A stretch of DNA of 64,000 nucleotides from an uncultured Mollicutes bacterium. Its GTDB lineage: Bacteria > Bacillota_I > Bacilli_A > RFN20 > CAG-288. The notes beneath the pieces are model-generated. The model had not been told where the DNA came from. It made no database searches and saw only the letters and a list, made by a program, of their open reading frames with translations. The stretch covers positions 64,926 through 128,925 of the forward strand of contig UQDS01000002.1 in assembly GCA_900539865.1 (NCBI GenBank), given 5' to 3'. Each line of letters starts with the position of its first letter. Position 1 is the first letter of the stretch. Positions 3,419 to 35,734 of the stretch are shown piece after piece. The position numbers and the translations under genes were made by a program.

Positions 3419-4486
3419 TTAGAAATTGCGTTCGACAACAGAAGGATAAGGAGTTTTGTATTTTCCGGTTTCATCGTATTCATCAGCACCACCGGCAATA
3501 TTTCCAAACCACTCTCCCCATCCGCCTTCATAGTTGAGATATTCTTGGAAGTCTCTGTAATGGTCAAAGGTGTAAAAAACCTTCATTTCAGTTGGTTTAG
3601 AGCAAGGAGTTCCGCCGCCATAAGAATAACGACGTCTATAGACAATACGAGATGAACCTCTGATAATTTTACTTCCGTTGTTATAGGGGCCTGTTCTATA
3701 GTTGCCTGAGTACTCGAAGCTACCTGTCGTACCGATATCCATTTCATAATAGGAGTATTTTGAAGGATCTGGAAGTTCAGGTTCTGTGGGATACTGACTC
3801 ACATCGTTGCTGTAATAATTGTTGTTGACACGAAGATATTTGCCCCACGGGCTGGCTGTAGGCTTTGCGCTCTTGTTCTTATCATAATTTGCAGGGGCAT
3901 CGCCAAAAGCAAAGACATAAGCAGCAACCTCTTCTAATGTTACATAAGCGCCACCTTTAAATATCGTATTGACCACGTTTCCGTTAACATCGACAATATC
4001 ATAAGATAAACCATCCGCGCTCAATCCGCTCGTGATATTTTTGACGAATTTACCATTTTCTTTCGGCTGATTTTTTGCGATTGTTGGACGCTGTTTTTGT
4101 TCCTCAATGGAGCCAGACATAAAGTGGTGTTGCGTGCGATAATAAGCGTCATTATACGTTGTTGCAGGTTGATAGTTTTTGTAAAACTCATAAGAGCTAA
4201 CTCCAACATAAGGGTCGGTAGTAGGGCCTTGATCTACAGATTCACTATCTGAAACAGGCGGTTCTGTATCTGGAATGGAGGGTTTTGTTTCAGGAAGTGT
4301 CGACTCCGTATCGGGTTGAACAGTTTCACTATCCGGATTGATTGTTTCGCTTTGCGGAGTGTCTGTCGGATTCACCGTTACAGGTGGATTTGTTTCCTTT
4401 CCATCACTTCCGAAAATAGGAAAACTGTTGGTACATCCAGTCAATGTCAATAAAATAGCTGGTATGATATATTTTAGTTTATGCAT
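3419..4486 (-). CDS. lipoprotein with C-terminal barnase-family (guanyl-specific, N1/T1-type) ribonuclease domain
   Basis: Signal peptide plus lipobox (LTLTGC). A Pro/Thr/Ser-rich linker follows. The C-terminal approximately 100 aa align with barnase catalytic elements: E-x-DIG (Glu73 equivalent), RIVYRRRY (Arg87 region) and FYTFDHYRDF (His102 equivalent). Confidence 0.65.
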   Translation of the reverse strand: MHKLKYIIPAILLTLTGCTNSFPIFGSDGKETNPPVTVNPTDTPQSETINPDSETVQPDTESTLPETKPSIPDTEPPVSDSESVDQGPTTDPYVGVSSYEFYKNYQPATTYNDAYYRTQHHFMSGSIEEQKQRPTIAKNQPKENGKFVKNITSGLSADGLSYDIVDVNGNVVNTIFKGGAYVTLEEVAAYVFAFGDAPANYDKNKSAKPTASPWGKYLRVNNNYYSNDVSQYPTEPELPDPSKYSYYEMDIGTTGSFEYSGNYRTGPYNNGSKIIRGSSRIVYRRRYSYGGGTPCSKPTEMKVFYTFDHYRDFQEYLNYEGGWGEWFGNIAGGADEYDETGKYKTPYPSVVERNF

Positions 4487-5393: not shown

Positions 5394-5660
5394 ATGAAAG
5401 TGAACAAGTTTGATATTCAAACGGCTATCCGTTATTTAAAAGCAGGATACCGTCTTAAAAGCATCATCGACCGCAAGGAAGAGTGTTTCGTCATGAGAAA
5501 TGACATTGTTTTTGTATTAGCAGAACAAAAAGGAATAAAGCTTGATCTTTATACCTTTGCAGATTTGTACAAAGATTGTGTCTTTGAAAAAGTAGAAGTA
5601 GAAGAGGAAGAAACAGTCGATATAAAGAAAGACGAAGAATATTACTCCTGGCGTCAATAA
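5394..5660 (+). CDS. hypothetical acidic 88-aa protein
   Basis: Complete ORF divergent from the Nudix gene. The C-terminus is acidic. I see no recognisable family. Confidence 0.4.
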   Translation: MKVNKFDIQTAIRYLKAGYRLKSIIDRKEECFVMRNDIVFVLAEQKGIKLDLYTFADLYKDCVFEKVEVEEEETVDIKKDEEYYSWRQ

Positions 5661-5871: not shown

Positions 5872-5936
5872 CCGCCTGAAACGGCGGTTTTTTTCATTAA
5901 AAAAAGCAGCTAGAAATTCAATCTAGCTGCTTTTTA
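5872..5936. terminator. two rho-independent terminators
   Basis: First hairpin CCGCC-tgaaa-CGGCGG plus T7 on the plus strand. Second hairpin GCAGCTAG-n9-CTAGCTGC, bidirectional, flanked by an A-run and a T-run. The second also terminates the giant minus-strand gene. Confidence 0.75.
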
Positions 5937-5937
5937 T

Positions 5938-8900
5938 TTATTCGTGGAAGAAATAAACGCGATCAGGAGAGTTATTTGTAGAAGTGTCTTTTGATGAGGC
6001 AGAAACCGTAAGGACAGCAACATCATAATTATCGACAATTGTTATGCCGTTATATTTGTATGTTCCGTGAGGCGTTGCCGTGATGTTAGAGATTACATAT
6101 TCCTCTAACTTTTGGATTCTTTCATCTTGTTGAAGCTGATCGATAACGCGATCAAAACGCTGCATTTTTTGTGCTTTCATTGCATCATCATCCGCGGGTA
6201 AATTGATATTTCTATTGAGTTCAAACGAGATGTTGACTGCGATCAAAGAAACAGCTTTGATGTTCATGTTGATGTTCAACTTCTTCAATTCATGATTTTC
6301 ATCATAAACGATAGATGCGGTTAATCCAGCTTTACCATTCGGATCAAATTCAACGAGGTTGTCCTTCATCGAAATCAATTTTCCAAGACAAGCTGTCATC
6401 GTCATCGTTCTGTTTGTTTCGTCATAAGTTGCACTTTGCAAAATAGAGGAATAGTTTCTAGACATCGTCACCGTATTCGCACTGCTTTCTGTTCCATTTC
6501 CTCCGGTGGAATCATTGATAGCACCATAGACATTTCCTAATATGATGTTTCCAACAGAGATTCCGATGGTGGACATACTTTCGATATTGAATACATAAGA
6601 TAAAATGTAGTAGATGATATTATTCAAAAGTTCTTTTTGAGAAAGTTTACGGATTTCAGCAACACTTTCAGAATACTTGATTTGATTAAACCAACTTTCT
6701 TCTTTTCTTTCGTAAGTTCTTGTTCGAATTGAGTATGCCTTATCTTCTAAGACAAAGAATTCAACACCATAGAAACCATTGTTTTTCCAATAATCCGCAT
6801 CGATTGCTTTGCTGTTAAACGACAAATATGCAATTGTCTGCTGATCTTGAATATAGACATAACAATTAAAGAAAGTTTGTAAAGTAGAGAGCTTTAAAGA
6901 AGGCAAGAAATCTAAAGCCATATCGAGCTTAAGATGACCGGAAAGATCAAAGAAATGATGTTCAGTTGTAGTAATCAAACATTGTGTAAGCAAATCAAAT
7001 CCTTTTGAATCAACGAAATTTGCTTTTGTTTCGTCGTTGTAAGGCATTATTGTTGGAAGCTTTGTAGAATCATAAGCAGAGAGCTTAATTGTCGCTTGAA
7101 TGTGGAAAGCAGAGATATGACCATCGGCAGTAACTTCAGCAAGCTTGTTGTTTTCATCAAAACGGAAGGTTAATTTTTCGCTGCGACCCGAATGATCATT
7201 TTCATCTAATAAGTGACTAGAAAATTCTAAATATAATGTCTTGTCAGTGATACGTATCTCTTTGATGTTCTCATTTGTGAGGATAGAGAGATCTTTGTTG
7301 ACAAAGGCATCGATAATAGGCATACCGGTAGAAATAGCTTTTGCTGTATTGAAATAATTTTTCAAATACTGATACAAGAGATTGTTCGGATTGTTTCCTA
7401 CCGATACAACACGATCGTAAATAGAGAAAATATCTCTGTTCTTAAGCAATAAATGCATCGTTGCAGGATCGCTTACTTGTTCATCCAAACTTGTGAACTC
7501 TGCAATTGTCTGACCATTGTTATAGTCGCCGTTATATTCAAAGAGAATGCGATGATCGGTGTAATTTGCATAAGGATCTGTTGTAGTATTTTCTCCTGTA
7601 TTTCCATTCATCGGAACAACATTCGCTTTACCGTCTTTTGGTTGATATAAATGAAGTGTACCGCCAAGTGTAGGAGCACCTTGGATGCTGTTATCTACTT
7701 GACAATCTCCTGTTAAAGCAAGGAGTTCGTTTTCGGTTTGTGTCAAATTGTCCTGTTGATAGACAGAACCATCAAGCTCAAGACCAAAAGTCTTAAAGTC
7801 TGTCGGTAAATCGTAAAAACCTTTAATGATTTGACTGACATTACTCATCTCATAATAAAGAGCTTCTTGCTCGGGGGTAAGTTTAAAGTCAGAGAAAGAA
7901 TCGTTTAAGCTTAAAGCAAAATCGACATTGTAATTTTGATAACTCAAGCCGCGTATGGTTAACCCGGTAAGAGCATCCGCGTTCGTATCTAATTCTAAAG
8001 CGACAGATTTGACTTTATCTTTCAACGACGTTTCTGCCAAAATGTAAGGTAGATTTAATTCAAGGAATAACTTGTTAGGGTCTTGATTGTTTTTGTCAAT
8101 TTTAACGATTTCTTCTAGATGAGTTAACGAATAATCTTCACTCATTTTTCCGAAAAGGTGATCGATAAATGCAGTAGATTGGAAATAAGTCAACAAATCA
8201 TTGACACCATCAAGAGAAGAAGAGATTCCTTGATCGCTCAGAATTTGATTAAGAACTTCATAAACAGAAGCCATGCCTTGATTACTGATTTTTTGGTGCA
8301 TGAATTGATCGAGAGAAAAATAGAGTATGTTCTGTTGATAATTAGCAACAATATTGTGATCTACGCCGCTTAAATTGGTATCGAAGGTAAGTTTGTAAGC
8401 ACCGTAATTTTTGTTTTCGCTTGTGACATCAAACTGAGTCATATCAGCGGATAATTCACCAGAACCAGCAAGGATTTGACCTTTTTCATCCGCGATATTG
8501 ATGTTGTACTTTGTGTTGAATCTTTTTTCGTGAATCAATTTAGAAACAGTATCGAATAAAGGGACAATTCCTTGATAGTCTTTAAATGTGTTTAATTCTT
8601 CTTTTGCTTTATCTAAGCTGATTTTTTCTTCTGGATTTACAGTTGCACTAAAGTCAAAGATATAACTTTGATAATGAAGATTGAGCAATTCGATATAAAA
8701 TCCGTTCGATATATCTGTAGTGACATCTAAAAGTTTTATCGTAAGATCATAATCTCCAAGTCCAAAGAGGTTTGCGTTGATAACGATTTGGACACCATTT
8801 GCTAAGAAATCAAATGAACGCACATGTTCTTTGATTGCATTCAAGTCTCCTTGGCGTATTTTATCTAAATCAATTTTGCTCAAAATAATATCAACAATGT

Positions 8901-10152
8901 CTGTGGTTTGATTAAGGTTGATATTGCTACCATTGGCATTCATCTCATTTGAGATACGGGTGAACAAATCGGCGAGCGTTTGATTGCTCATTTTACCTTT
9001 CAAGAGATTGTTCAATTGTAAGTAGATATTATTGTCGCGATATAATGCATAAACATCATTAGATAAACGCTGATTGACATAATGTTTCAAATCGATTTGA
9101 TAAGTACCTTTGCTCAAATCGCGTTCAACAGTGGACAAATCCCCTTTTAAAGTACCAACAAATTCTTGTTGATGAATGTTATTGGTCTCATCACGGAATT
9201 GAATAGCATAATCAGCTTTAAAGTTTTTCTTATCTACCAGTTTGGCAACAGTGGTACAAAGATTAGATGTTGTTTCTGTCATATCCTGATAAAGTTTCTT
9301 TTGGGCATCACTTAAACCTTCATACAAAGAGGAAGCATTCAAATTAATTCCGAAAGAATCAAAAGAAACACGATAAGTAGAATTAATTTCGATGCCATCA
9401 GCCCCTGTTTTAATACCGATAAGATTGTTATCGTTATCAGAGGAAAGGATGACAATCGGGTTAGCAATTGTCACGGGCAAATTCAACTCGTTCAAGATAT
9501 CTGTAAGATTTAATGTGTAGTCATAACCATAAGAAGTTGGTGTTTGCAAGGCGTTATTTCCTAAATCCATAGCTTTGCCGACAAGATCCTCTATATTTAC
9601 ATTTTCAAAAATTCCACCAATAGTTGATCCAATATCCGGAACTTCGACGCCAACTGCAGTTAATAAAGGCAAAACACCTGCAATTGTCTGCGGTGCATTA
9701 AACGCAAAATTCTTATTCTCGTATGTTAAATAAGCGGTGCTGTTTTCAAAAACAGCATCGATATTTTCATTAATGTTTTGATACTGAACATTAATTTTTG
9801 TTTTTAATTTTAAATCAGCGACGTTCTTACTGCTTAACAAATCAGAAAGATCCATATCAAAATCTGTCAATGACAACTTAATATCACTGACTCCTGTCTG
9901 TGAAAGTGTAAAGTTGAAACTTGGAGCGATTATTTGTTGTGTATTGACAAGCTTTGTGGCTAATTTTGAGAAAGTCGGTTCCTCATCAACGCTTTCTTCT
10001 GGAACAAAAATATCACTTGTTCCATCTCCGCCGTTTTCCTGTGGAATATTAGGCTTAACTGGATCGACAATGTCATGCACTAAATAAGCGCCCGTTCCAC
10101 CTATACCTAACGATAAGAAACTGACTAATGTATAAATGACCCAATTTTTCAT
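5938..10152 (-). CDS. giant (1404 aa) N-terminally membrane-anchored extracellular protein, Asn/Ser-rich, unknown family (large subunit of module B)
   Basis: Single N-terminal TM helix (VIYTLVSFLSLGIGGTGAYLV). The N-terminal approximately 450 aa are paralogous to the 516-aa protein at 11570-13120. Start overlaps the stop of the upstream gene (ATGA). Confidence 0.8.
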   Translation of the reverse strand: MKNWVIYTLVSFLSLGIGGTGAYLVHDIVDPVKPNIPQENGGDGTSDIFVPEESVDEEPTFSKLATKLVNTQQIIAPSFNFTLSQTGVSDIKLSLTDFDMDLSDLLSSKNVADLKLKTKINVQYQNINENIDAVFENSTAYLTYENKNFAFNAPQTIAGVLPLLTAVGVEVPDIGSTIGGIFENVNIEDLVGKAMDLGNNALQTPTSYGYDYTLNLTDILNELNLPVTIANPIVILSSDNDNNLIGIKTGADGIEINSTYRVSFDSFGINLNASSLYEGLSDAQKKLYQDMTETTSNLCTTVAKLVDKKNFKADYAIQFRDETNNIHQQEFVGTLKGDLSTVERDLSKGTYQIDLKHYVNQRLSNDVYALYRDNNIYLQLNNLLKGKMSNQTLADLFTRISNEMNANGSNINLNQTTDIVDIILSKIDLDKIRQGDLNAIKEHVRSFDFLANGVQIVINANLFGLGDYDLTIKLLDVTTDISNGFYIELLNLHYQSYIFDFSATVNPEEKISLDKAKEELNTFKDYQGIVPLFDTVSKLIHEKRFNTKYNINIADEKGQILAGSGELSADMTQFDVTSENKNYGAYKLTFDTNLSGVDHNIVANYQQNILYFSLDQFMHQKISNQGMASVYEVLNQILSDQGISSSLDGVNDLLTYFQSTAFIDHLFGKMSEDYSLTHLEEIVKIDKNNQDPNKLFLELNLPYILAETSLKDKVKSVALELDTNADALTGLTIRGLSYQNYNVDFALSLNDSFSDFKLTPEQEALYYEMSNVSQIIKGFYDLPTDFKTFGLELDGSVYQQDNLTQTENELLALTGDCQVDNSIQGAPTLGGTLHLYQPKDGKANVVPMNGNTGENTTTDPYANYTDHRILFEYNGDYNNGQTIAEFTSLDEQVSDPATMHLLLKNRDIFSIYDRVVSVGNNPNNLLYQYLKNYFNTAKAISTGMPIIDAFVNKDLSILTNENIKEIRITDKTLYLEFSSHLLDENDHSGRSEKLTFRFDENNKLAEVTADGHISAFHIQATIKLSAYDSTKLPTIMPYNDETKANFVDSKGFDLLTQCLITTTEHHFFDLSGHLKLDMALDFLPSLKLSTLQTFFNCYVYIQDQQTIAYLSFNSKAIDADYWKNNGFYGVEFFVLEDKAYSIRTRTYERKEESWFNQIKYSESVAEIRKLSQKELLNNIIYYILSYVFNIESMSTIGISVGNIILGNVYGAINDSTGGNGTESSANTVTMSRNYSSILQSATYDETNRTMTMTACLGKLISMKDNLVEFDPNGKAGLTASIVYDENHELKKLNINMNIKAVSLIAVNISFELNRNINLPADDDAMKAQKMQRFDRVIDQLQQDERIQKLEEYVISNITATPHGTYKYNGITIVDNYDVAVLTVSASSKDTSTNNSPDRVYFFHE

Positions 10153-11246
10153 TCTTCACCTCCTTCTTGTTTCGGAAGTAATTGAAAACCGGCAAATGTC
10201 GGCTCATTTACTAAGGGAAGATTAATGGTCACACCATTGAAGGTGTTGTTATCGCTATAGAAATAATATTGCTTAATTTCAGATGTCGTGTCTGCAGAAA
10301 TGACACCGGTGTCAGCATCATAACGGTCCATAAAGTTAGAAGATAGTGGATTAAGTTGAGCATCAAAATCAAATGTTAAAACACATTCCGAAAACTTTGG
10401 ACGACGCGCTAAATCACCAGTTGATTTCATTTGCACTGCATAGTAAGAAACAGAATAAGGTTTTCCAATTACATCTAAATCGATAGTTACCTTATATCCT
10501 TCTTCTACTTTTTCAACAGACGTTTTACTGTTCTCACCCTGTGGTTTCACAGTGTCTTTGGTGAGATTATATATCAAAGCCCCATTGCGAACAAATTTTT
10601 GTTTTTCTTGGCTTTGTTCATATTCTTCTTTATCAAAACTAAGAAACTTCTCTGGGATAGGGTTATCATTATCCGCGTCAGAAGAGACACAAAAATAATT
10701 TCCAGTGTTAAGTTTTCCGTAAGTTTGGATAAAACTATCATACGTGTATTCTTTGACTTTCGTTTTTGCCCAATCCGTTGCGCGAGACGCCTCATATCCA
10801 TGGATGACTTTATTCTGTCTATCCTCATAATAACGATCGGCTGCATGGACAAAACTTGAATCAGACTCTTTCTGATGGAAGAAGCCTTCGGGGGTATTAT
10901 AAGTTGTGCTTATAATTGTTTGATTTACTTTTGTAAATCCGGCGCTTGCTAGAGCGTTGCCTTGACCAACAACAAGTGAATATTTTTTGGATGTAAAAAT
11001 ATCAAAGGCATAATTAACAATATCGTGTGGTGGAATTGTAGAAACTAAAGTGTCATTTTTTAACGCCTCTTCCACCAATTTATTACGATGGGCGATAGAT
11101 CCAAGAGAAGATCCTCCCGCCGGCCCAGCAATAACTTCATCAGGAGCTTTGTTGAAAATATCATATAAATAGTAGCCGGCACCACTGCCAATCAAAAGGA
11201 AGAGAACCGAAAGAGAGCTGATGGTGATCACAAACTTTTTATCCAT
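10149..11246 (-). CDS. membrane-anchored extracellular protein, unknown family (small subunit of module B)
   Basis: N-terminal TM helix. Core block IVGQGNALASAGF...YNTPEGFFHQKESDSSFVHAADRYYE is clearly paralogous to the protein at 13117-14352. Confidence 0.8.
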   Translation of the reverse strand: MDKKFVITISSLSVLFLLIGSGAGYYLYDIFNKAPDEVIAGPAGGSSLGSIAHRNKLVEEALKNDTLVSTIPPHDIVNYAFDIFTSKKYSLVVGQGNALASAGFTKVNQTIISTTYNTPEGFFHQKESDSSFVHAADRYYEDRQNKVIHGYEASRATDWAKTKVKEYTYDSFIQTYGKLNTGNYFCVSSDADNDNPIPEKFLSFDKEEYEQSQEKQKFVRNGALIYNLTKDTVKPQGENSKTSVEKVEEGYKVTIDLDVIGKPYSVSYYAVQMKSTGDLARRPKFSECVLTFDFDAQLNPLSSNFMDRYDADTGVISADTTSEIKQYYFYSDNNTFNGVTINLPLVNEPTFAGFQLLPKQEGGEE

Positions 11247-11569
11247 AATATTTTCTGTTTTCTTTCTATTTTTCTATATCAATAAATAGTTAAAACATAT
11301 GTTTAACTATAAATTTAAGAATATATGAGAATTTCTATTTGGTCAAATGTTTCATAAGCAAACTATCATTTTTTTATTCTATTTTGATATTTTGTTATAT
11401 AATTTTTTACTTTTTGCAAAAAATTCTTACAAATAATAGATGTTTCAAAGAAAATGAACACTTACAGAATTTAAAACTTGTCCAATTTTCATTTTTTTAG
11501 GTTTTTTCTGTCACGATAAAAAACATGACAATGAAATTGATTCTTAACGACAAGCCTCATACAAAATTG

Positions 11570-13120
11570 TTAAAAGCGAGACAATTCATCTTCTGTTTTA
11601 GACAACACAATTTTATCTACAGGGTCAAGAATATAAACAGTCTTGCGAGTATCTTTTTGAGCAGTTATACGATTAACAGTGATTTTCATTTTAGGATTTT
11701 CAGCAGTTCCTTCTCTTTCGAGAATTATCGTAAATTCCAAATCACCGAGATTCATGTTTTTAGTATCAAATTGCAGTAAAATTGAATTTTGAGTGTACTG
11801 AACCTGTGAAATAGACGCTTTATAAAGGAGATACAAATCCTCAAAAATACGTTTGATATCGCCACTAGCAAAATCAATTTTATCTAAAATACCACCAGAT
11901 TGCGTTGATTCTTTTCCAAAAATACCACCTATGATTTCAATAATTTTATGAATGTTTTCACTCAATTTACCAATGTTGAGTTTGAAATGAAGCCAATCAT
12001 TATGGCTAAAATAAAGCATTTCTTGACGATATAAAGCATAAATATTTTTTGTATTCTTTCCCTCAACACTTTCATCGGCAGTTATTTCAAAAACACCGGT
12101 ATCCAAGTTATTGCCATCCGCAGATAAATCTCCTTTAATTGTACCGATTGTTTCTTTCTTTTTTAACGTGTCCGAAACATCAAAAGATTCGCTGACAGAA
12201 GAAAAAGAGATTTCAAAATTTTTAGACTCTAACAATTGCGTAATAATCGTAAACACATGACTGTTAAATTCTGTCATATCAACATATTTTGATGTCTCGT
12301 CTTCCGATAGAGGCACATATGCGGATTCATAAATAGGAGTGAAATCACAGTTTACTTTCACTTGATAGAGATTGTTGATGCTTATACCATCATCGATGGT
12401 ATGAACGGCGGCCAAATTGAAATCAAGATCAGTTAAAATTTCTAATTTGAAATTTGAAAAAGGAAGTTGTAGTACATTTGAATAATAAGTAAAATCGATC
12501 AAAAAAGAATAGCTATTTTCGGTTTTCGTCTCTATGACAAACTCTTCTAACATTTCTAAGTTGGAAATGATTTCATCTACTGTGATTTTAGAAATAAGGT
12601 TTTCTATTAGAGTTGGATTAGGAAGAGGAATTCCAACAGCAGTTAATATGGGAAGTATAGAATCAATTGTTTCTGAAGTTTTCGTGCAAATGTAATTTGA
12701 TTCATTAGAAAAGTATAAAAACTCATTTTGTGAGGCAAAGTTAAAGGACTCATCAACAACATCGTTGCTGATGTGAAAAGTTCCTTTCGCCTGTGGCGCT
12801 TTTAATTGAAATAGTGGTTCGAGATTGATATCCAAATCAGAAAAAGTAAATTCGAAATCTTCATTTTCATTATTACTCAAAGTAACTTTAGAGGACTCTG
12901 ACTTCAGTTGTTGCATCGTCAAAGCTTTATTGATAAACTTCCCAAAATTAGATTGCACGGTTCCACTTTCCCTTGGAACAAAGCCCTCCATTCCTGTTTG
13001 GTCTGAAGGAAGTGAGTCCCCTTGTTTTCTTTCAACTATATCGATTGCTACATAAGATCCCACTCCGCTTAATAAAAGAGTAGAAGCGCTGATGATTGCA
13101 TACAAAATACTACGTTTCAT
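11570..13120 (-). CDS. membrane-anchored extracellular protein, 516 aa (large subunit of module A)
   Basis: N-terminal TM helix. Shared blocks with the 1404-aa protein, for example ILPILTAVGIPLP versus VLPLLTAVGVEVP. Start overlaps the stop of the upstream gene. Confidence 0.8.
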   Translation of the reverse strand: MKRSILYAIISASTLLLSGVGSYVAIDIVERKQGDSLPSDQTGMEGFVPRESGTVQSNFGKFINKALTMQQLKSESSKVTLSNNENEDFEFTFSDLDINLEPLFQLKAPQAKGTFHISNDVVDESFNFASQNEFLYFSNESNYICTKTSETIDSILPILTAVGIPLPNPTLIENLISKITVDEIISNLEMLEEFVIETKTENSYSFLIDFTYYSNVLQLPFSNFKLEILTDLDFNLAAVHTIDDGISINNLYQVKVNCDFTPIYESAYVPLSEDETSKYVDMTEFNSHVFTIITQLLESKNFEISFSSVSESFDVSDTLKKKETIGTIKGDLSADGNNLDTGVFEITADESVEGKNTKNIYALYRQEMLYFSHNDWLHFKLNIGKLSENIHKIIEIIGGIFGKESTQSGGILDKIDFASGDIKRIFEDLYLLYKASISQVQYTQNSILLQFDTKNMNLGDLEFTIILEREGTAENPKMKITVNRITAQKDTRKTVYILDPVDKIVLSKTEDELSRF

Positions 13121-14352
13121 CTTTTCACCTCCACATCAATGCCTGATAACAAATCAAAACCCTTAAAATACATCTCGTCAATTTTAGGAATATTCACATC
13201 GACAAAACCATTTCCGTTAACAAACCTTGCATTATTACTTGTGAAGTAATACTGGTCTAAATCACAACTAATATCAGCCATAATAACGCTTTTTAACGCT
13301 TTATATTCATCGTGAAAATGAGAAGAAATTAAATTTAGTTGATTGTCCAAACGGAATGTAAGAATACTCTTTAAATAAGTGGGCAAAGAGGACAAACCGC
13401 CTGTAGATTTCATTTGAACTTGAGAAAAACCTATCCCGTAATTGTTTTGCACATCCATTTCAATTTGTATTTCATATCCGTATTTCGTCGTGTTGAATCT
13501 ATTTGCATCCGAATACTTTAATACAGTATTTTCATCAAGATTATAAATTAATGAACCATTTACTTTATGCTTTGTTTTTTCATTGCTCTGATTGTAAACA
13601 GCTTCATTATCTGTTAAAAACTTTTCTGGTATCGGTCTGTTTTCTTCCGGTAAAGAATCAACGCAATAGTAAATTCCTTTTCCTAATTTTCCAAACGTTT
13701 GTATATAATCGTCATAACTATAAATATGATTTGATGAGGAATTTTTCCAATCTTCCGGTTTTGCATATTCATAAGCTTCAACACTTTTCAACGAAACGTT
13801 TTCGTAATAGCGATCAGCTGTATTTACAAGAGAAGAAGATGATGTTTTTTGATTAAAAAAACCATTTGGTGTGTTATATGTAGCAGCTTGAATTTTTTGA
13901 TCAATTTGGATAGGACCCGTTTTTGCAACAGCGTTTCCTTGTCCAATAATAATGTTGTATTTTGTTTTAGCAAAGTTATCAAAGGCGTAATTTAACAATT
14001 GATACGTTTTTAGAGAATAATCTTCAAGCAATGTTCCTTTTTCTAAGGACTGTTGTATTTGTTGAACATCATAGCCACTATTAGACTCATTTGGTTTTGA
14101 TACGGGTTTGTTATTATTATGGTGTGTTTGAATGTATATCTGATAACCAGAAAAGCAACCTACTAAGGAGAATACAAGCACACAAGCAACACCGCCTAGA
14201 ACGCGGCGTGTAACACTATCATTACGGCGCTTCACGCCGTTTTGATCTTCGATCTGTAGTTGGGTTTCTTCGAGTCTTACCTCTTTCTGAGAATAATTAA
14301 AAAGACCAAAGGTAAGTATTTCGTAATTTCGCTTGTTTTTATTTGGTTCCAT
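13117..14352 (-). CDS. membrane-anchored extracellular protein, 411 aa (small subunit of module A)
   Basis: TM helix near residues 50-70. Paralog of the protein at 10149-11246. Confidence 0.8.
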   Translation of the reverse strand: MEPNKNKRNYEILTFGLFNYSQKEVRLEETQLQIEDQNGVKRRNDSVTRRVLGGVACVLVFSLVGCFSGYQIYIQTHHNNNKPVSKPNESNSGYDVQQIQQSLEKGTLLEDYSLKTYQLLNYAFDNFAKTKYNIIIGQGNAVAKTGPIQIDQKIQAATYNTPNGFFNQKTSSSSLVNTADRYYENVSLKSVEAYEYAKPEDWKNSSSNHIYSYDDYIQTFGKLGKGIYYCVDSLPEENRPIPEKFLTDNEAVYNQSNEKTKHKVNGSLIYNLDENTVLKYSDANRFNTTKYGYEIQIEMDVQNNYGIGFSQVQMKSTGGLSSLPTYLKSILTFRLDNQLNLISSHFHDEYKALKSVIMADISCDLDQYYFTSNNARFVNGNGFVDVNIPKIDEMYFKGFDLLSGIDVEVKR

Positions 14353-14523: not shown

Positions 14524-14895
14524 TTATTTATCTTCCGATTCCATGAGAATCTTCATTCTCTCTTCACGACGGCGTTGTTTTGCCTCTAATTCTGCCGCTT
14601 TAGCAGTATAAGAGAAGACAACAATGAGAATGCCTATCATCGCAATAATCATTGCAACAGTCCCTACAATTCGGAAGTCCATAACGCCTTGCATTTTGAA
14701 GAATGCCGCAAAGGATTTCTGCAATTCGTACAACGGGTTGGTAGAAAGCTTTCCAACGTTGAAAGCACAAATGCCTAAGATAGCAAACACTAATCCAGTG
14801 ATCCAAAGAAAGCCGAAGATGCAATACCAAACAATCTCACCTTTGAAAATTTTTCTATGACTCTTTTTAACTTTTTCTTCCATGATATAACTCAT
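14524..14895 (-). CDS. small membrane protein (2-3 TM helices)
   Basis: Hydrophobic ORF immediately downstream of the 14907-15797 gene on the same strand. Confidence 0.5.
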   Translation of the reverse strand: MSYIMEEKVKKSHRKIFKGEIVWYCIFGFLWITGLVFAILGICAFNVGKLSTNPLYELQKSFAAFFKMQGVMDFRIVGTVAMIIAMIGILIVVFSYTAKAAELEAKQRRREERMKILMESEDK

Positions 14896-14906: not shown

Positions 14907-15797
14907 TCAGGCTTTTACAGGTTCTGTTTCGTTTTGCATTTGCTGACCGACATCAATAAACATTTGATTGAGTTCGTTCTGAATAGAGGAAAGAAGCGGG
15001 TCAAAATAACTGACGAACATTTTAAAGAAGGCTTTCAAATCTGTTGTTGTTTTCTTTCCGTTAAAGATTTCACAATCAGAATAGATAGATGCTTTAATGC
15101 GTTCGAACTCCGAATCACCTTCGCCATAAGAATTAAGAATAACCAACATATCTTGATTCAACTGATGGAACTCATTCTCTAACATACGGAAAGAAGGATC
15201 GTTACGAACATCGAATTCTGAATCGGTGTTAGGATTGATGCCGTTATGCTCTTTGGAATAAGCCTGAGCATAAGTATTAGCAGCCTTATTAATGTCTTGG
15301 AAATTGTTGGAAATTAAAATACAAGATATTTTTCCAGCGAGACAATGATAATAACGAATATCAGTCATGATAAGTTTTTCAACTTGTGCAGATAAAAGAT
15401 CTCTTTCTTTTAACGCCTTCATCGCGGCGTGAAGAAACGCTTCTAAACGAGCTCTAAGATTAACAATCGTATGGAAAAGTTCAAGTGTTAATGATTGTTC
15501 AACAACAAGATCGCCATTTAAAGTTGTGTAGACGATTCTTCCAGAGTTACCGTAGACATCTTCAATAAAGTACTGCATGTCTTCTTTTAACTCTTTACCA
15601 AGATCACCATTATTATCACAATTTGTAGCAAAAGGAGAACCTTCTTCAGTCAAAGCTGTTAGTGCTTCAAAACGACTTTTTCTTTCTTCAGTAGAAAAAC
15701 CTTCGGGATTAACAGATTTTAAACAATACCAAAGTGATGATTCAACAATGCGAGAGATCGTAAGAATGGTCATCACGTTCTTTTCTTCGTTGTTCAT
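14907..15797 (-). CDS. hypothetical cytoplasmic protein, 296 aa
   Basis: Complete ORF with RBS. No recognisable motif. Confidence 0.55.
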   Translation of the reverse strand: MNNEEKNVMTILTISRIVESSLWYCLKSVNPEGFSTEERKSRFEALTALTEEGSPFATNCDNNGDLGKELKEDMQYFIEDVYGNSGRIVYTTLNGDLVVEQSLTLELFHTIVNLRARLEAFLHAAMKALKERDLLSAQVEKLIMTDIRYYHCLAGKISCILISNNFQDINKAANTYAQAYSKEHNGINPNTDSEFDVRNDPSFRMLENEFHQLNQDMLVILNSYGEGDSEFERIKASIYSDCEIFNGKKTTTDLKAFFKMFVSYFDPLLSSIQNELNQMFIDVGQQMQNETEPVKA

Positions 15798-20711: not shown

Positions 20712-21857
20712 ATGTTAGAAAACATTACATACAAATATAGAATTTATCTAACCGAAGACCAAAAGAAAACATTTACAAAAATCTCAAATGCCGAAACGAA
20801 CCTTATCAACCTTGTTTTGCAAAAAATAGACCGATCAAAATTCAACTATCCAAGTGTCAACGATCTCTTTTTTTACTTAGGAAAAGTAAGAAAAGAAGGA
20901 CATGCTGATATTTTTAATGATCTCTATTCATCGACTATTCCGTTATTAATCAGAAGATTAGCAATGGGAATTAATATCTGTAAGAAAAACAACGTTCCTT
21001 TCCCCATGCCAAAAAATCCTAAAGATTATGTAAGTTCAATCATCTTCAATCCGCAAATAGATAGAATACAAATGGTAAGTCGCAAAAAGATTCGGGCGAT
21101 TTTAAACATTAAAAAATTCGGTAATATCAAACTTGTTTTTCATCGACCATTTCCAAAAAACAGCACTTGCATAGCAACCATAATAAAAAAATTTCCTAAT
21201 GATCAGTTTTATATTTTCTTTGTTTTACAAGGCTCTTTTGGAAAAGAAAAAAATTATGAGTATAAATCCTATGATAAAACTATCGGCTTAGACTTCTCGT
21301 TAAAAAACTTTTTTGTTTCTACAGACCCAAAAATAATACCAAATATGAACTTATTAACTCCAAATAGAGAAGAACTAAAACTAATCAAGACAAGACAAAA
21401 CAATCTTATGAGAGAAAACAAATACTCTAAGAATCACGAGCGTGCACACATACTATATTCAAAATTAGTAACGAAATTAAAATATCGAAGAATTCAAGAA
21501 TACTACAGACTAATTGATGAAATACTCAAAAAGTACGACGTTATAGCTGTAGAAACATTAAAAATGGAAAAAATGAAACAAAACACTCGTTTTTCCAACA
21601 GAGTTCTTCAATTAGGCTATATTGAATTTTTGAAGCTCTTAACATACAAAGCCGAATTAGAAGGAAAGCATGTAGTCAAAATTTCCCCTTGGTATCCCTC
21701 ATCACAAATTTGCTCAGTTTGCGAATATAAGAATAACAATTTAAAAATTTATGATAAAACCTGGATTTGTCCTAAATGTCATTCATTTCATGTAAGAGAT
21801 GAAAATGCAGCTTTTAACATAAAAAAAGAAGGAAATAGAGTTTACAATCTGAATTAA
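20712..21857 (+). mobile_element. tnpB: IS200/IS605-family accessory gene tnpB (OrfB, RNA-guided endonuclease), solo with no tnpA
   Basis: 381 aa. RuvC-I (IGLDFS), RuvC-II (IAVETLKME), C-terminal zinc finger CSVC...CPKC and RuvC-III (RDENAAFNI). About 280 bp of non-coding sequence follows, as expected for the right end and its omega RNA. Confidence 0.8.
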
Positions 21858-22140: not shown

Positions 22141-22228
22141 TGGTGCCCGGGGCCGGACTTGAACCGGCACGGATTATGAGTCCGCAGGATTTTAAATCCT
22201 GTGCGTCTACCGATTTCGCCACCCGGGC
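22141..22228 (-). tRNA. tRNA-Leu (anticodon TAA)
   Basis: Cloverleaf with long variable arm, anticodon loop UUUAAAA, CCA encoded. Confidence 0.85.
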
Positions 22229-22234
22229 ACTAGA

Positions 22235-22310
22235 TGGTGACTCGTACGGAACTCGAATCCGTGGCCCCTTGATTAAAAGTCAAGTGCTCTACCAACTGAG
22301 CTAACGAGTC
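22235..22310 (-). tRNA. tRNA-Lys (anticodon TTT)
   Basis: Cloverleaf, anticodon loop CUUUUAA, CCA encoded. Confidence 0.85.
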
Positions 22311-22323
22311 AGATAACGCAAAC

Positions 22324-22398
22324 TGGCTGGGAAAGAAGGACTCGAACCTTCGCATGTCAGAGTCAAAGTCTGATGCCTTACCGCTTGGCTATTTCCCA
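22324..22398 (-). tRNA. tRNA-Gln (anticodon TTG)
   Basis: Acceptor UGGGAAA/UUUCCCA, anticodon loop CUUUGAC, CCA encoded. Confidence 0.8.
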
Positions 22399-22438
22399 AT
22401 GTATGTTGGGACGAATTAATGCCGAACACCAGAGAGAG

Positions 22439-22522
22439 TGGTGGGCGGTCGTGGATTCGGACCACGGAACCCAAAGGAACAGATTTACAGTCTGCCGCGT
22501 TTGACCACTTCGCTAACCGCCC
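22439..22522 (-). tRNA. tRNA-Tyr (anticodon GTA)
   Basis: Long variable arm, anticodon loop ACUGUAAAU, CCA encoded. Confidence 0.85.
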
Positions 22523-22549
22523 ATTATAACGTTGTCTCGCTGATGTAGA

Positions 22550-22627
22550 TGGTGGATGCTAAGGGACTCGGACCCCTGACCTCCGCCGTGTAAAGGCGAT
22601 GCTCTAACCAACTGAGCTAAGCATCCC
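22550..22627 (-). tRNA. tRNA-Val (anticodon TAC)
   Basis: Acceptor GGGAUGC, anticodon loop CUUUACAC. Confidence 0.8.
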
Positions 22628-33653: not shown

Positions 33654-35657
33654 CTATCTTTCCACATAAACGACCATATCTTCTTTAGGAAGTATCGTCA
33701 CAATATTCTTTTGCACACCTTCTTCAACAACATAAAGACGAGTATAGTTACCAAGAAGTTCTTGAATTGCACTCTCATAGCGAGCCAATTTCGAACCCGG
33801 AACAATTTTCATCATCTTATCCTCTTGTCCAGTTTCCTTAAACGTAAGAGTTATCGCTTTTGTCAATCGGCGAATAAACTTTTTCTCCACAACACTTTCT
33901 TGATTGTCATTCACAACAGAAAGCGGGAGTTGTGCAAGACCGAGAGTATCAAAATCTTTATCTGTGACAGGAACCTTCGACGCCTCATCTAAATAAAGTC
34001 CATTATAAAGATAAGTGGCTCCATCGAGCGTTTGTTCACCCATAAAGTCAACACCCAAACTATCATAATCAACGATGTCTTTCATATTGAAATACTGCGA
34101 ATAAGTTAGATTGGGAACTTCTGTATAATTTCCATCGGCTGAAAGGTTTGCAAATGTTTTGACTTTAAAGGACCACTGATAGAAAATTTTCAAATTTAAA
34201 GTAAAGTTTTCCATCGGCATATCCGTATTGATATTAACTATTTCTTTACCTTGTGTATCCAAAGAATAGAAATATGTTGCATCTAAATGATTGTTTGTAT
34301 CCTGTACCGACTCTAACGCTTTTTCAAAATCTGTCAAATAGGAAACAATGCTCTCACCCGGTTTCACCACAAAAGATTTGTTTTCTAAACGAGTTCCTTC
34401 AAAGTTATCCGGATAATCATAATTTAAAGATAAAATCGGATAATCATCATAGACAGCTGTCAAAAGCAAATCGGTGTCAGGAAGAGGATGAATAAAATTA
34501 AAGACGCCTCCCTTTTCATCAACAAAGTAAAGGAAATCCCCACTGTCTTTCACTGGAAGATGGGCATCATAAAACTCTGTTCCTAAAATATCGCCTTCGT
34601 AGTAATCAGAAAACGTTTCAGAAGTTAATCCATTGACCATTCCGCCTGCATAATCTAATACAACATTGATATGATCATCCCATTTCAAATAAATATCCAT
34701 ATCATTATCCATAATGGAGGAATTTAAGGATATCGGATTTTTAAAGGCCGGATCGGTATAAAAACCAGCAAATCGATGTTCTTTTGTCTCGACTGGATAA
34801 TAGCGATAGCCTGTCGCTTCAGCGCCAAAATCAATTCCTAAATCACGTTTAATCTGAGCGATTAAATTTTGTGAAAAATCCACTTCTTTCGTTTGGAATG
34901 ATTGATCTGAAACACCATCTAAATTGTAATGAATAGTAATTTTAGGATCTTTTTTCCAATGAGCATACAGCGTAAAACTCTCTTGATCTAAAGGTCTTGG
35001 GAATACCATGTTTCCTTCAGAAAAAGCTGTATTATCAAATTTGTAAACACCTTTTTCTTGTGTGACATCTAACTGATAATATGTTTCTTTATTCTCGTTT
35101 TGTACGGCCTTCAACGGGTATTCGGTATACCAATATTCAAAGGTGAGATGAGATCCGTCCGCTTTTGCAGTTGGAAGAGCATCTGTTGAAATTGGTTTAT
35201 TGACATATCCATGTAAATTTTGACCTTTGAATGACTCCGGATTTTTCTCTGGTTCAACTAAAATACCATTTTGAGAAGCCGCCTCAGTTAAATCAAAAGA
35301 AAGAGTCACTAACTTTTCATAATAAGCATACAAAGTATCCTCAACATAGGGATAATGAAAATAATATTTACCATCAGTCTCATCAAATTGCTTGCTGACG
35401 ATTCGATAAGAACCATCTTCTTTCTTTTCACGCCATCCTACAAATTCATATCCTTCTTTTGTAGGATCGGGAATATCAACTTCAACTTTTGCACCTGCTG
35501 GTCCCACTAATTCCATCGTATTAAAATCAGCCGGAAAAGAGCCACCATTGAGATCAAAAATGATCTTCCCCATCAACTTGTTTCCACAAGAAGAAAGCGG
35601 CGCAATCATAGTCAAACAGGTCATAGAAACTAAAAGTTTTTTATTAAAGCTATGCAT
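33654..35657 (-). CDS. lipoprotein with Listeria-Bacteroides (InlB B-repeat-type) repeats
   Basis: Lipobox LSSCG. Repeated GYxFxGW-like units. AAGGAGGGG RBS before the MHSF start. Confidence 0.55.
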   Translation of the reverse strand: MHSFNKKLLVSMTCLTMIAPLSSCGNKLMGKIIFDLNGGSFPADFNTMELVGPAGAKVEVDIPDPTKEGYEFVGWREKKEDGSYRIVSKQFDETDGKYYFHYPYVEDTLYAYYEKLVTLSFDLTEAASQNGILVEPEKNPESFKGQNLHGYVNKPISTDALPTAKADGSHLTFEYWYTEYPLKAVQNENKETYYQLDVTQEKGVYKFDNTAFSEGNMVFPRPLDQESFTLYAHWKKDPKITIHYNLDGVSDQSFQTKEVDFSQNLIAQIKRDLGIDFGAEATGYRYYPVETKEHRFAGFYTDPAFKNPISLNSSIMDNDMDIYLKWDDHINVVLDYAGGMVNGLTSETFSDYYEGDILGTEFYDAHLPVKDSGDFLYFVDEKGGVFNFIHPLPDTDLLLTAVYDDYPILSLNYDYPDNFEGTRLENKSFVVKPGESIVSYLTDFEKALESVQDTNNHLDATYFYSLDTQGKEIVNINTDMPMENFTLNLKIFYQWSFKVKTFANLSADGNYTEVPNLTYSQYFNMKDIVDYDSLGVDFMGEQTLDGATYLYNGLYLDEASKVPVTDKDFDTLGLAQLPLSVVNDNQESVVEKKFIRRLTKAITLTFKETGQEDKMMKIVPGSKLARYESAIQELLGNYTRLYVVEEGVQKNIVTILPKEDMVVYVER

Positions 35658-35734
35658 TGATAACCCCTCCTTTGACAATAATCAGAGAATAACTTCCTCG
35701 TGCATTAACGCACGAGGAAGTGAAAAAAGAAATT

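Follow-up and report, generated by a model that had tools for sequence, protein, structure and literature searches.

In known systems, LolA-like domains either hold the acyl chains of a lipid or lipoprotein or bind to a partner protein; LolA itself is fed by a transporter of the MacB-like (type VII ABC) type. In mycobacteria, the operon of LprG also encodes a membrane partner (LprG–Rv1410c), and LppX takes part in PDIM transport. In Proteobacteria, DUF1329 is another LolA-like protein, whose gene usually lies next to that of a much larger envelope protein. Mollicutes carry two-gene operons of N-terminally anchored surface proteins—P97/P102 of M. hyopneumoniae and MIB–MIP—often as several diverged paralogs. 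For Firmicutes, a preprint outlines GerS of Clostridioides difficile as a LolA-like, membrane-tethered protein that works via a protein partner, an example of such a fold that can act purely as a protein activator (bioRxiv 10.1101/2025.01.13.632879).

The locus described here lies on the minus strand of the window—the whole stretch of 64,000 nucleotides of DNA that was analyzed. Its four open reading frames (ORFs) of 411, 516, 365, and 1404 aa form two two-gene modules, each with a small protein (S) followed by a large protein (L):

13117-14352, minus strand: S2, small protein of module 2 (ORF, 411 aa; 40% identity to S1)
13117-13132, minus strand: S2–L2 coupling site, GGAGG Shine–Dalgarno (13132-13128) and ATGA overlap (13120-13117), read from the sequence
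11570-13120, minus strand: L2, shortened large-protein paralog of module 2 (ORF, 516 aa; anchor, N-domain, and one repeat unit)
11247-11569, no strand: AT-rich inter-module spacer (323 bp, GC 20.7%)
10149-11246, minus strand: S1, small protein of module 1 (ORF, 365 aa)
10149-10163, minus strand: S1–L1 coupling site, GGAGGTGA Shine–Dalgarno (10163-10156) and ATGA overlap (10152-10149), read from the sequence
5938-10152, minus strand: L1, large protein of module 1 (ORF, 1404 aa)
5901-5935, minus strand: hairpin of 14 pairs with A and T runs on its flanks, 3 nt past the L1 stop (terminator scan)

The initial annotation had placed four consecutive genes here, with an ATGA start–stop overlap in each module and an AT-rich spacer of about 320 bp; the ORFs match exactly, the spacer measures 323 bp, and both overlaps are found in the sequence—the L1 ATG (10152-10150) with the S1 TGA (10151-10149) and the L2 ATG (13120-13118) with the S2 TGA (13119-13117). 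Both large-gene ATGs have GGAGG 6-7 nt upstream, and the S2 ATG at 14352 is preceded by the Shine–Dalgarno site AAAGGTG. As the start of L overlaps the stop of S, the two proteins would be co-produced and most likely work as a single complex. The spacer is presumably the site of the module 1 promoter; promoter-like matches within it are weak, and a riboswitch or structured leader was looked for and not found, with neither an Rfam match nor significant RNA folding (z = -1.0). The hairpin is a probable bidirectional terminator closing the unit. Two upstream genes of 296 and 123 aa are kept only in close syntenic relatives and were excluded from the system because they are missing from distant S–L loci.

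S1 and S2 share 40% identity over 351 aa (E 9e-84), and L1 and L2 share 26% over all 516 aa of L2 (E 3e-42), covering L1 residues 1-523. At these values, the paralogy of the modules, as originally proposed, is far above chance, and by the same identities the two modules are old and deeply diverged. Among the genomes examined, the tandem module duplication is observed in this species only; every other genome has one S gene, including that of locus L023, where a second large gene accompanies the single small gene. L2 is shorter than the large protein of every relative examined (972-1451 aa). Hence, module 1 might represent the ancestral, full-length form and module 2 a lineage-specific duplicate under weaker constraint, in which L would have been cut to its anchor, N-domain, and one repeat.

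The initial annotation had called for a survey of small-plus-large pairs beyond this genome. Of 32 related contexts, all from metagenomes, 30 have an S gene with an L gene of 1000-1451 aa directly behind it (L005-L014, L017-L020, and L022-L037), with identities of the S relatives down to about 24-30%. A profile of L (the A3 HMM) reaches E 9e-11 for L018, 1e-23 for L019, and no worse than 4e-57 for any of the large ORFs of L022-L037; a word-indexed homolog search with L1 and L2 had returned only themselves and one 58%-identical ortholog. Judged by these profile matches, the large partners are one family; the S–L pair is a real, conserved unit. With such conservation, an undescribed membrane-anchored extracytoplasmic complex is a reasonable reading. 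S and L show 36-41% identity to their orthologs, whereas the flanking genes there show 52-90%; these similar divergence rates, faster than those of the neighbors, suggest extracellular, co-evolving proteins. A mobile-element origin was rejected, as the chromosomal position of the unit is syntenic in relatives, a tblastn search of S1 against plasmids and phages gave no match, PADLOC found nothing, and PHROGs gave nothing below E 0.02 for the four proteins.

The carriers of the pair are uncultured, small-genome gut Bacilli, at least some of them in the order RFN20: UBA4682, which carries the pair at locus L013, is placed in the RFN20 family CAG-288 (PMC8629427). This family is predicted to be peptidoglycan-deficient, and RFN20 genomes are reported to lack the sortases srtA/B (PMC10868615). 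With no peptidoglycan predicted and no sortases, anchoring by a helix is the expected way to hold surface proteins. At a hydropathy cut-off of 1.5, an N-terminal hydrophobic segment is seen in S1 (residues 1-27), S2 (residues 46-74), and L2 (residues 4-26), whereas the homologous segment of L1 falls just under the cut-off; the earlier assignment of one N-terminal transmembrane helix per protein is, hence, consistent with the hydropathy of three proteins and borderline for L1. S2 is predicted to carry a cytoplasmic tail of about 45 aa, this one hydrophobic segment, and then the conserved ectodomain. A lipobox ([LVI][ASTVI][GAS]C within about the first 35 residues) is absent from S1, L1, and L2. 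S2 has LVGC at residues 63-66, behind a 50-residue N-terminal tail; its translation as a lipoprotein from an internal GTG start was rejected, since that start has no ribosome-binding site and homologs do not keep the cysteine. The four C-termini are hydrophilic, with no LPXTG-like motif nearby, and wall-binding domains (SLH, CWB2, LysM, choline-binding) have no Pfam match in the four proteins and 11 large homologs.

The core sequence described for S (GQGNA..., ATYNTP.GFF.QK.S.SS.V..ADRYYE) is present in S1, S2, and relatives. An AF2 model of S1 (pLDDT 80, pTM 0.79) places a helical linker and a long, curved antiparallel β-sheet domain behind the N-terminal membrane helix; the latter domain is modeled as a half-barrel—an unclosed antiparallel β-barrel—with an α-helical lid or plug. 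The seven best Foldseek matches of this model in the PDB are DUF1329, LprG with and without lipid, LolA3, LolA, the LolA-superfamily protein NE2245, and SAOUHSC_02783, all at probabilities of 0.85-1.0, with the DUF1329 structure 4z48 on top (E 8.6e-5); LprG (3mh8 and 3mha) and LppX (2byo) are among the best structural matches. TM-scores relative to the targets are 0.28-0.47 and identities 6-13%, so that the S model resembles the open half-barrels of LolA, LprG, LppX, and DUF1329 at the fold level only. LolA-clan Pfam families (LolA, LolB, LppX_LprAFG, DUF1329, DUF4367, and others) have no match at E <= 1 in S1 or S2, and the clan is absent from the Pfam matches of 45 diverse S homologs. The most conserved residues of S are polar (R138, Y140, Q109, S128, Y251, Y309, and a V-Q-M-K-S-T-G loop), which would suit a hydrophobic pocket less well than a protein interface or a particular polar ligand; a loop at 269-277 is conserved and modeled with low confidence.

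Sequence-based searches assigned no family. The four proteins have no family match in Pfam (E <= 1) or NCBIfam—no adhesin, Ig-like, lectin, or repeat family, and no enzyme family or catalytic motif in L—and Pfam gives nothing consistent across 45 small and 11 large homologs (the large ones at E <= 5). Matches to ETRAMP, B12D, and DUF6669, in one to three members each, were attributed to chance or to the membrane helix. Sequence and profile searches of the PDB with S1, L1, the profiles A2 and A3, and the repeat profile A6 stayed at chance level (e.g., coronavirus spike, E 0.1). The S profile gathers 331 cluster representatives; none of the 10 looked up bears a functional name. The view that these proteins match no adhesin, S-layer, sortase-substrate, or lipoprotein family has, hence, held up, and that of no recognizable family holds for the sequences of all four and gives way for S, whose predicted fold is LolA/LprG-like.

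L1 can be divided into six parts, all on the minus strand:

9976-10152, minus strand: anchor ending G-x-G-x-Y, then an acidic linker (residues 1-59; alignment with L2 and nine orthologs)
9316-9975, minus strand: N-domain, common to L2 (residues 60-279; hhalign N vs R1 43%, N vs R2 26%)
8611-9315, minus strand: repeat R1, also in L2 (residues 280-514; hhalign R1 vs R2 98.3%, E 2e-14)
7843-8610, minus strand: repeat R2 (residues 515-770; hhalign R1–R2 98%, R2–R3 91%)
7048-7842, minus strand: repeat R3 (residues 771-1035; hhalign R2 vs R3 90.8%, E 1.2e-6)
5941-7047, minus strand: C-terminal region (residues 1036-1404; no hhalign match to other units)

By these profile alignments, L1 contains three homologous repeats of about 235-265 aa each, and BLASTP also matches L2 residues 289-453 to L1 residues 532-723. 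The N-domain bears a weak relationship to the repeats (residues 130-326 pair with residues 366-560 at 85%). Within the C-terminal region, residues 1044-1259 can still be recognized in the large protein of L017, which is the most distant partner (colinear, 79% probability). The roughly 900 residues by which L1 exceeds L2 had been described as Asn/Ser/Thr-rich, a description that does not hold: N+S+T make up 24.4% of residues 1-520 and of 521-1404 alike. Nor is this extra part of 888 residues unstructured filler, as it holds two further copies of the repeat present in the shared part. A model of L1 residues 205-1404 from a three-row alignment shows long helices alternating with strands; because its pLDDT is only about 35 (34.7), the fold of L1 was left unassigned, and a Foldseek search with this unreliable model (no match at E <= 0.001) was discarded. 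The anchors of S and L have a G..G.Y ending in common, its tyrosine in L1 (Y23) being invariant in the alignment with L2 and nine orthologs; profile–profile comparison of S and L, whole and unit by unit, finds no homology beyond the membrane helix.

How does the pair compare with the systems named above? S relatives without L adjoin ABC proteins of MacB/LolCDE-like topology. This concerns two contexts, in which the S relatives (P0170 and P0056) are lipoproteins with a clear lipobox and the fused ABC protein comprises an ATPase, one transmembrane helix, a large ectodomain, and then two or three further predicted transmembrane segments; a link of S relatives to type VII ABC transporters is, hence, suggested by n = 2 gene neighborhoods. 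A 685-aa lipoprotein beside the ABC genes of L021 was considered as an L relative and rejected for lack of similarity. Unlike LolA or LolB, S has no sequence similarity to them or LolA-clan match, is about twice the size of LolA and membrane-tethered where LolA is soluble, and belongs to monoderm or wall-less Bacilli with no outer membrane as destination; its usual partner is a repeat protein of 1000-1450 aa and not an ABC transporter like LolCDE. LprG and LppX bind lipids outside the cytoplasm while tethered to the membrane, a location also predicted for S. However, they are held by an acyl anchor, as lipoproteins of about 200-240 aa; S has 365-411 aa and a helix as its anchor, its conserved residues are polar, any lipid binding is a prediction, and L is not an MFS or MmpL transporter. 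DUF1329 provides the best structural match, yet S has no Pfam DUF1329 match, and the DUF1302 partner of DUF1329 is an outer-membrane β-barrel, whereas L is α/β in its low-confidence model, repeat-built, and anchored in the cytoplasmic membrane.

Our leading, although still tentative, reading is that of an undescribed two-subunit extracytoplasmic complex, formed by a LolA-like adaptor or carrier (S) and an extended repeat protein (L), which probably handles amphiphilic cargo or contacts the host surface. Both proteins would sit on the outside of the cell membrane, anchored by their N-terminal helix. S, with its predicted open, curved half-barrel like those of LolA, LolB, LprG, and LppX, might be the membrane-proximal adaptor or carrier; L, with its N-domain, three α/β repeats, and distinct C-terminal region, probably extends away from the membrane as an arm. 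On a little-walled or wall-less cell, such a complex could handle amphiphilic molecules (lipids, glycolipids, or lipoproteins) at the surface.

It is doubtful, albeit arguable, that the locus is instead an adhesin or host-interaction module, in which L would be a long surface adhesin, S its membrane-proximal anchor or partner, and duplication a source of antigenic or binding diversity. L is indeed large, N-terminally anchored, and repeat-built; S and L evolve much faster than their neighbors; L023 has a second L paralog as well; and the layout is similar to the paralogous two-gene P97/P102 operons of M. hyopneumoniae. These and MIB–MIP are two-gene surface-protein operons in wall-less relatives, but neither sequence nor domains match (Pfam, including the DUF31 family of the MIP peptidase, gives nothing), they have no LolA-like subunit, and nothing in S–L indicates their functions of adhesion or antibody cleavage. 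Among near-identical strains, differences are few, mostly in L1 and L2, and largely non-synonymous. They are point changes only, and module 2 is about twice as polymorphic as module 1: L2 has 2.1 variable positions per 100 aa and is broken into 206 + 310 aa in one strain. The duplication had been taken as typical of host-interaction or antigenic-variation loci; antigenic variation is not supported by these data. All other genomes examined have a single S gene, the modules are anciently diverged, and near-identical cassettes, inverted repeats, and simple-sequence tracts were looked for at the locus and not found; only short residual paralog matches and chance-level inverted repeats occur, and no DNA prone to inversion or slippage was detected. 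L diverges evenly over its length without a hypervariable tip—the last 174 residues of L1 being the most variable, somewhat faster part—and L2 lacks the distal two-thirds. There is no sign of any antigenic-variation mechanism. An adhesin would, in addition, find no counterpart among the families searched and leave the LolA-like fold of S unexplained.

Alternatively, S might be a dedicated protein partner of L—a chaperone, assembly factor, or allosteric activator as in GerS–CwlD—with L itself as the functional enzyme or structural protein and no lipid cargo, which we regard as unlikely. The S–L order and the stop–start overlap hold strictly across the 30 contexts, the divergence rates of S and L are similar, the conserved polar patches and the loop 269-277 look interface-like, and the G..G.Y endings could pair in the membrane. 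GerS, in the account outlined by the preprint, is a precedent with a LolA-like fold in a Firmicute, as predicted for S (bioRxiv 10.1101/2025.01.13.632879). However, GerS is a lipoprotein for spore germination with a small amidase as partner, searches of L detect neither an amidase nor any other enzyme domain, and GerS is not among the top structural matches of the S model. The lipoprotein relatives beside MacB-type transporters also argue against a pure partner of L, as S would have an L-independent role in these lineages.

Narrowing the leading reading to an undescribed apparatus with which wall-less or thin-walled gut Bacilli scavenge or transfer lipids would be distinctly improbable on present evidence. 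Hereby, S at the membrane would receive lipid from, or donate it to, the long arm of L repeat domains—comparable in function to diderm bridge-type lipid transporters or Mycoplasma P116, with unrelated parts—and the S-only lipoproteins would serve MacB-type ABC transporters likewise. AsmA/TamB signatures (AsmA, AsmA_2, TamB, DUF748) have no Pfam match in 11 large homologs. A structural surface scaffold that partly replaces a missing or thin wall in shape and envelope integrity, with no transport or adhesion, is very unlikely: at least some carriers are predicted to be without peptidoglycan and sortases, and L is long, repetitive, and membrane-tethered, but the pair evolves rapidly for a core structural component, nothing points to self-assembly domains or strong expression, and in many RFN20/RF39 families the wall is predicted to be retained (PMC10868615).

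The uncultured, tiny-genome bacteria of RFN20 and its sister orders are common in the gut, and some of them are predicted to be wall-less. The two modules together take up about 1% of a 1-Mb genome, are conserved in the relatives examined, fast-evolving, and unannotated; S and L are two families suitable for adding to domain databases. A LolA/LprG-like subunit whose lipoprotein relatives neighbor MacB-type ABC transporters leads to a concrete, testable hypothesis, namely that amphiphiles are handled at the cell surface; if adhesion is the true function, the pair would be a candidate host-contact structure of these organisms.

Two paralogous modules with the signals of translational coupling lie next to each other in the window, where the four consecutive minus-strand ORFs are found exactly at the positions the initial annotation had assigned to them. 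Each module consists of a small membrane-anchored protein (S) and a large partner (L), namely S1 with L1 (module 1) and S2 with L2 (module 2).

13117-14352, minus strand: S2, ORF of 411 aa
11570-13120, minus strand: L2, ORF of 516 aa
10149-11246, minus strand: S1, ORF of 365 aa
5938-10152, minus strand: L1, ORF of 1404 aa

S1 and S2 share 40% identity over 351 residues (E 9e-84), and L2 aligns over its full length to residues 1-523 of L1 (26% identity, E 3e-42). The ATGA overlap of start and stop claimed earlier is present in both modules, the large-gene ATG sitting on the small-gene TGA, and a GGAGG is located 6-7 nt 5' of each large-gene ATG, within the end of the small gene. Between the modules lies a spacer (323 bp, GC 20.7%) that matches no Rfam family and folds no better than shuffled sequence; a 14-pair hairpin with A and T runs on either side follows 3 nt past the L1 stop codon. 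By hydropathy, S1, S2, and L2 each bear a single N-terminal hydrophobic segment—preceded in S2 by a tail of ~45 residues—and the L1 segment homologous to this anchor falls slightly under the cut-off used. Neither an LPXTG-type signal nor an N-terminal lipobox is present in any of the four proteins. S2 alone contains a lipobox-like motif, LVGC at residues 63-66, within its membrane segment. Translation of S2 from codon 40, an in-frame GTG, would start with a textbook signal peptide of a lipoprotein (MKRRNDSVTRR-VLGGVACVLVFSLVG-C); this GTG has no ribosome-binding site upstream, and the lipobox-like Cys is missing from the homologs.

The proposed absence of a known sequence family was borne out, as both the S and the L family are absent from the Pfam, NCBIfam, PADLOC, and PHROGs libraries searched. 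Pfam and NCBIfam at E <= 1 return nothing for S1, S2, L1, and L2, nor do PADLOC and PHROGs, and searches of the PDB by sequence and by profile are likewise empty. A Pfam scan of 45 diverse small-protein and 11 large-protein homologs gives no recurrent family, and tblastn with S1 as query finds no match among phage and plasmid records. Literature searches, none of them directed at the S–L pair in particular, found no paper on it. A word-indexed search retrieves only seven clusters for S1 and almost none for L1 and L2. With a small-protein profile, 331 of 1.84 billion cluster representatives are matched at E <= 1e-3, of which 47 reach E <= 1e-30; almost all of the listed matches measure 270-450 aa, and none of the ten looked up bears a functional name.

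Genomic contexts were examined wherever the DNA around small-protein relatives could be retrieved; the relatives of the window genome are labelled Bacilli or Mollicutes MAGs. The small gene is directly followed by the large gene in 30 of these 32 contexts, several of which fall within the same species groups. The S–L pair is strictly conserved, and the pairing first seen in this one genome hence extends beyond it. In genome and assembly collections, ten loci (L005-L014) carry a gene of 1324-1430 aa immediately after the small one, and all 16 loci from a metagenome scan (L022-L037) contain the pair. It is also found in four loci of much more distant small-protein relatives:

L017: small protein of 381 aa, large protein of 1339 aa
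L018: small protein of 377 aa, large protein of 1001 aa
L019: small protein of 336 aa, large protein of 1053 aa
L020: small protein of 382 aa, large protein of 1006 aa

An HMM built from the large-protein alignment detects every large ORF of the metagenome loci at E 4e-57 or better, that of L019 at E 1e-23, and that of L018 at E 9e-11. The most distant partner, the large protein of L017, is colinear with L1 residues 1044-1259 (hhalign probability 79%). Judged by these profiles, the large partners constitute one family.

A confident AlphaFold2 model of S1 from a seven-sequence alignment (pLDDT 80, pTM 0.79) displays an N-terminal helix (3-32) and further helices at 48-86, after which comes a long antiparallel sheet that is strongly curved and accompanied by a few short helices; the conserved loop V-Q-M-K-S-T-G (269-277) is modelled at low confidence. 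The seven top Foldseek PDB entries are all of the LolA-superfamily type: DUF1329, LprG with and without bound lipid, LolA3 and LolA of P. gingivalis, NE2245, and SAOUHSC_02783 of S. aureus. Lower matches include P. aeruginosa LolA, MucB, LolB, and Csa1B. The fold class of S is thereby assigned at the level of the model, with E ~1e-4 and probabilities up to 1.0. Since TM-scores relative to the target are modest (0.28-0.47) and identities amount to 6-13%, we regard the likeness as a fold-level resemblance rather than established homology.

For L1, a profile self-comparison reveals three homologous repeats, R1 (280-514), R2 (515-770), and R3 (771-1035), with probabilities of 98% for R1 against R2 and 91% for R2 against R3. 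The repeats also bear a weak relation to the N-domain (60-279; 26-43%), and the C-terminal 370 residues are unrelated to every other unit of L1. The supposed Asn/Ser/Thr enrichment of the extra 888 residues does not hold, their content being 24.4% there and 24.4% in the first 520. A model of L1 from a three-sequence alignment reached a pLDDT of only 34.7, and a fold search on this poor model returned nothing; at this low confidence, a pattern of a long helix, four to five strands, about three helices, and four to five strands appears to recur. Profile comparison detects no relation between L and S in any part except the membrane helices, which have a G..G.Y ending in common.

Two full modules appear to be specific to the window species, as all other genomes examined carry one small gene only. 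Several near-identical assemblies exist for this species. In close relatives (L005-L009), one module occupies the same chromosomal position, flanked by a hibernation-factor gene and two unnamed genes on one side and by NUDIX/MazG genes on the other. Duplication of L recurs in another form in the metagenomic locus L023, where S and an L of 1451 aa are accompanied by a second L paralog of 972 aa. Module 2 looks like a derived copy. L2 is reduced to the anchor, the N-domain, and a single repeat. Its identity to relatives' large proteins is 22-29%, compared with 36-37% for L1 (against L006, L008, and L009), and strain variants show ~2 variable positions per 100 aa in module 2 and ~0.9 in module 1. 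At least one strain has L2 either disrupted or mis-assembled, since one contig set of the same species shows it as ORFs of 206 and 310 aa (P0199, P0200) that jointly cover 516 residues.

The initial annotation had likened the duplicated locus to host-interaction or antigenic-variation loci. No mechanism of phase or antigenic variation emerged: repeat searches yield only faint paralog remnants at ~3-kb spacing, inverted repeats are at chance level, and divergence is even along L, with the last 174 residues alone somewhat faster. Among assemblies otherwise 99.7-100% identical (11 genes, compared with L001, L002, and L004), L1 and L2 hold most differences. The three comparisons together give 14 non-synonymous and 2 synonymous changes in these two genes, against four non-synonymous (all in a decarboxylase gene) and one synonymous in the nine other genes together; such counts are too low for a test.

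Several neighboring genes may be described alongside. Immediately 5' of S2, two unnamed minus-strand genes (14524-14895 and 14907-15797) encode a 123-aa protein with two membrane helices and a 296-aa soluble protein, neither with a family match; they retain 59-68% identity and their order in close relatives, are absent beside distant S–L pairs, and are separated from S2 by a terminator-like hairpin followed by a T-run. On the 3' side of L1, two small opposite-strand ORFs of 88-89 aa (5394-5660, plus strand) and 40-50 aa, again without family match, recur in the same place in each close relative checked (L001, L005, L006, and L007), which suggests that they are real genes; in L001, a 40-aa gene is called between L1 and the NUDIX gene. 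A 355-aa predicted lipoprotein (3419-4486, minus strand; lipobox LTGC) bears a Pro/Thr/Ser/Glu-rich linker and a C-terminal match to barnase-type ribonucleases that is weak and below cut-off (Pfam PF00545, E 0.003); its counterparts in L007 and L008 are 64-65% identical, and it may act as a nuclease tethered to the cell surface. Another probable surface protein, of 674 aa (33654-35678, minus strand), carries a Listeria-Bacteroides repeat domain (Pfam Flg_new, E 6e-11). Between a NifU-like gene and a five-tRNA cluster (22141-22626), a 381-aa ORF (20712-21857, plus strand) is annotated in identical assemblies as IS605 OrfB/TnpB-like (Cas12f1-like_TNB); the gene calls of L005 and L006 lack it at the syntenic position, so the ORF has the look of a species-specific insertion.

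The two small-protein relatives without a large partner, the distant P0056 and P0170, bear lipoprotein signal peptides, and both genes adjoin fused ABC proteins. These comprise an N-terminal ATPase, one TM helix, an ectodomain of 250-520 aa, and two or three more predicted TM segments, which is the MacB/LolCDE layout; one shows a weak FtsX match as well. In L015, the small gene begins 38 bp after the ABC genes. This adjacency, seen in two contexts only, recalls the pairing of LolA with a type VII ABC transporter, and a functional link of the S fold family with such transporters in monoderm bacteria is possible. Both S-only loci (L015 3138-9110 and L021 256-8089) contain pairs of fused ABC ATPase–permease proteins with MacB-like topology, L021 together with a TetR regulator and another lipoprotein of 685 aa. 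The window itself encodes, 44 kb from the S–L modules, a 907-aa fusion of an ABC ATPase and an FtsX-type permease with a large ectodomain and MacB-type layout (58288-61011, minus strand); it shares the architecture of the ABC proteins beside S-only homologs, with 26-33% identity in the ATPase part.

CAG-288, the family of the window genome, is predicted to be peptidoglycan-deficient, and its order RFN20 is without sortases (PMC10868615). S and L presumably face outward, anchored by an N-terminal helix that is probably retained uncleaved, as suggested by conservation at the end of the helix and by the long tails that S2 and several homologs have on the cytoplasmic side. We tentatively favor, at somewhat less than an even chance, a two-subunit extracytoplasmic complex of S and L, in which the LolA/LprG-like S would serve near the membrane as an adaptor or carrier of amphiphilic material and the long repeat protein L would work together with it; that there is a cargo at all is part of this conjecture. 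Identity to orthologs is 36-41% for S and L, compared with 52-90% for flanking genes in the same genomes, and the two diverge at similar rates; such values are typical of exposed proteins. An adhesin module is an unlikely yet credible alternative. Across 45 S homologs, R138 and Y140 are invariant and Q109, S128, Y251, and Y309 nearly so; these polar or aromatic residues would fit a specific interface with a head-group, a glycan, or a protein no less well than a greasy pocket. A role of S purely as protein partner to L, on the model of GerS and CwlD, seems quite improbable. L is probably extended in shape, and a structural scaffold is the remaining, very improbable, explanation.

The favored complex with S as adaptor or carrier would be a variant on a known theme, as a LolA-like extracytoplasmic subunit is already known to be encoded together with a large envelope partner in LolA–LolCDE, LprG–Rv1410c, DUF1329–DUF1302, and GerS–CwlD. 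The S–L pair provides a solid, well-delimited case in an understudied group, and there is a modest chance that the structure of L could reveal something quite new.
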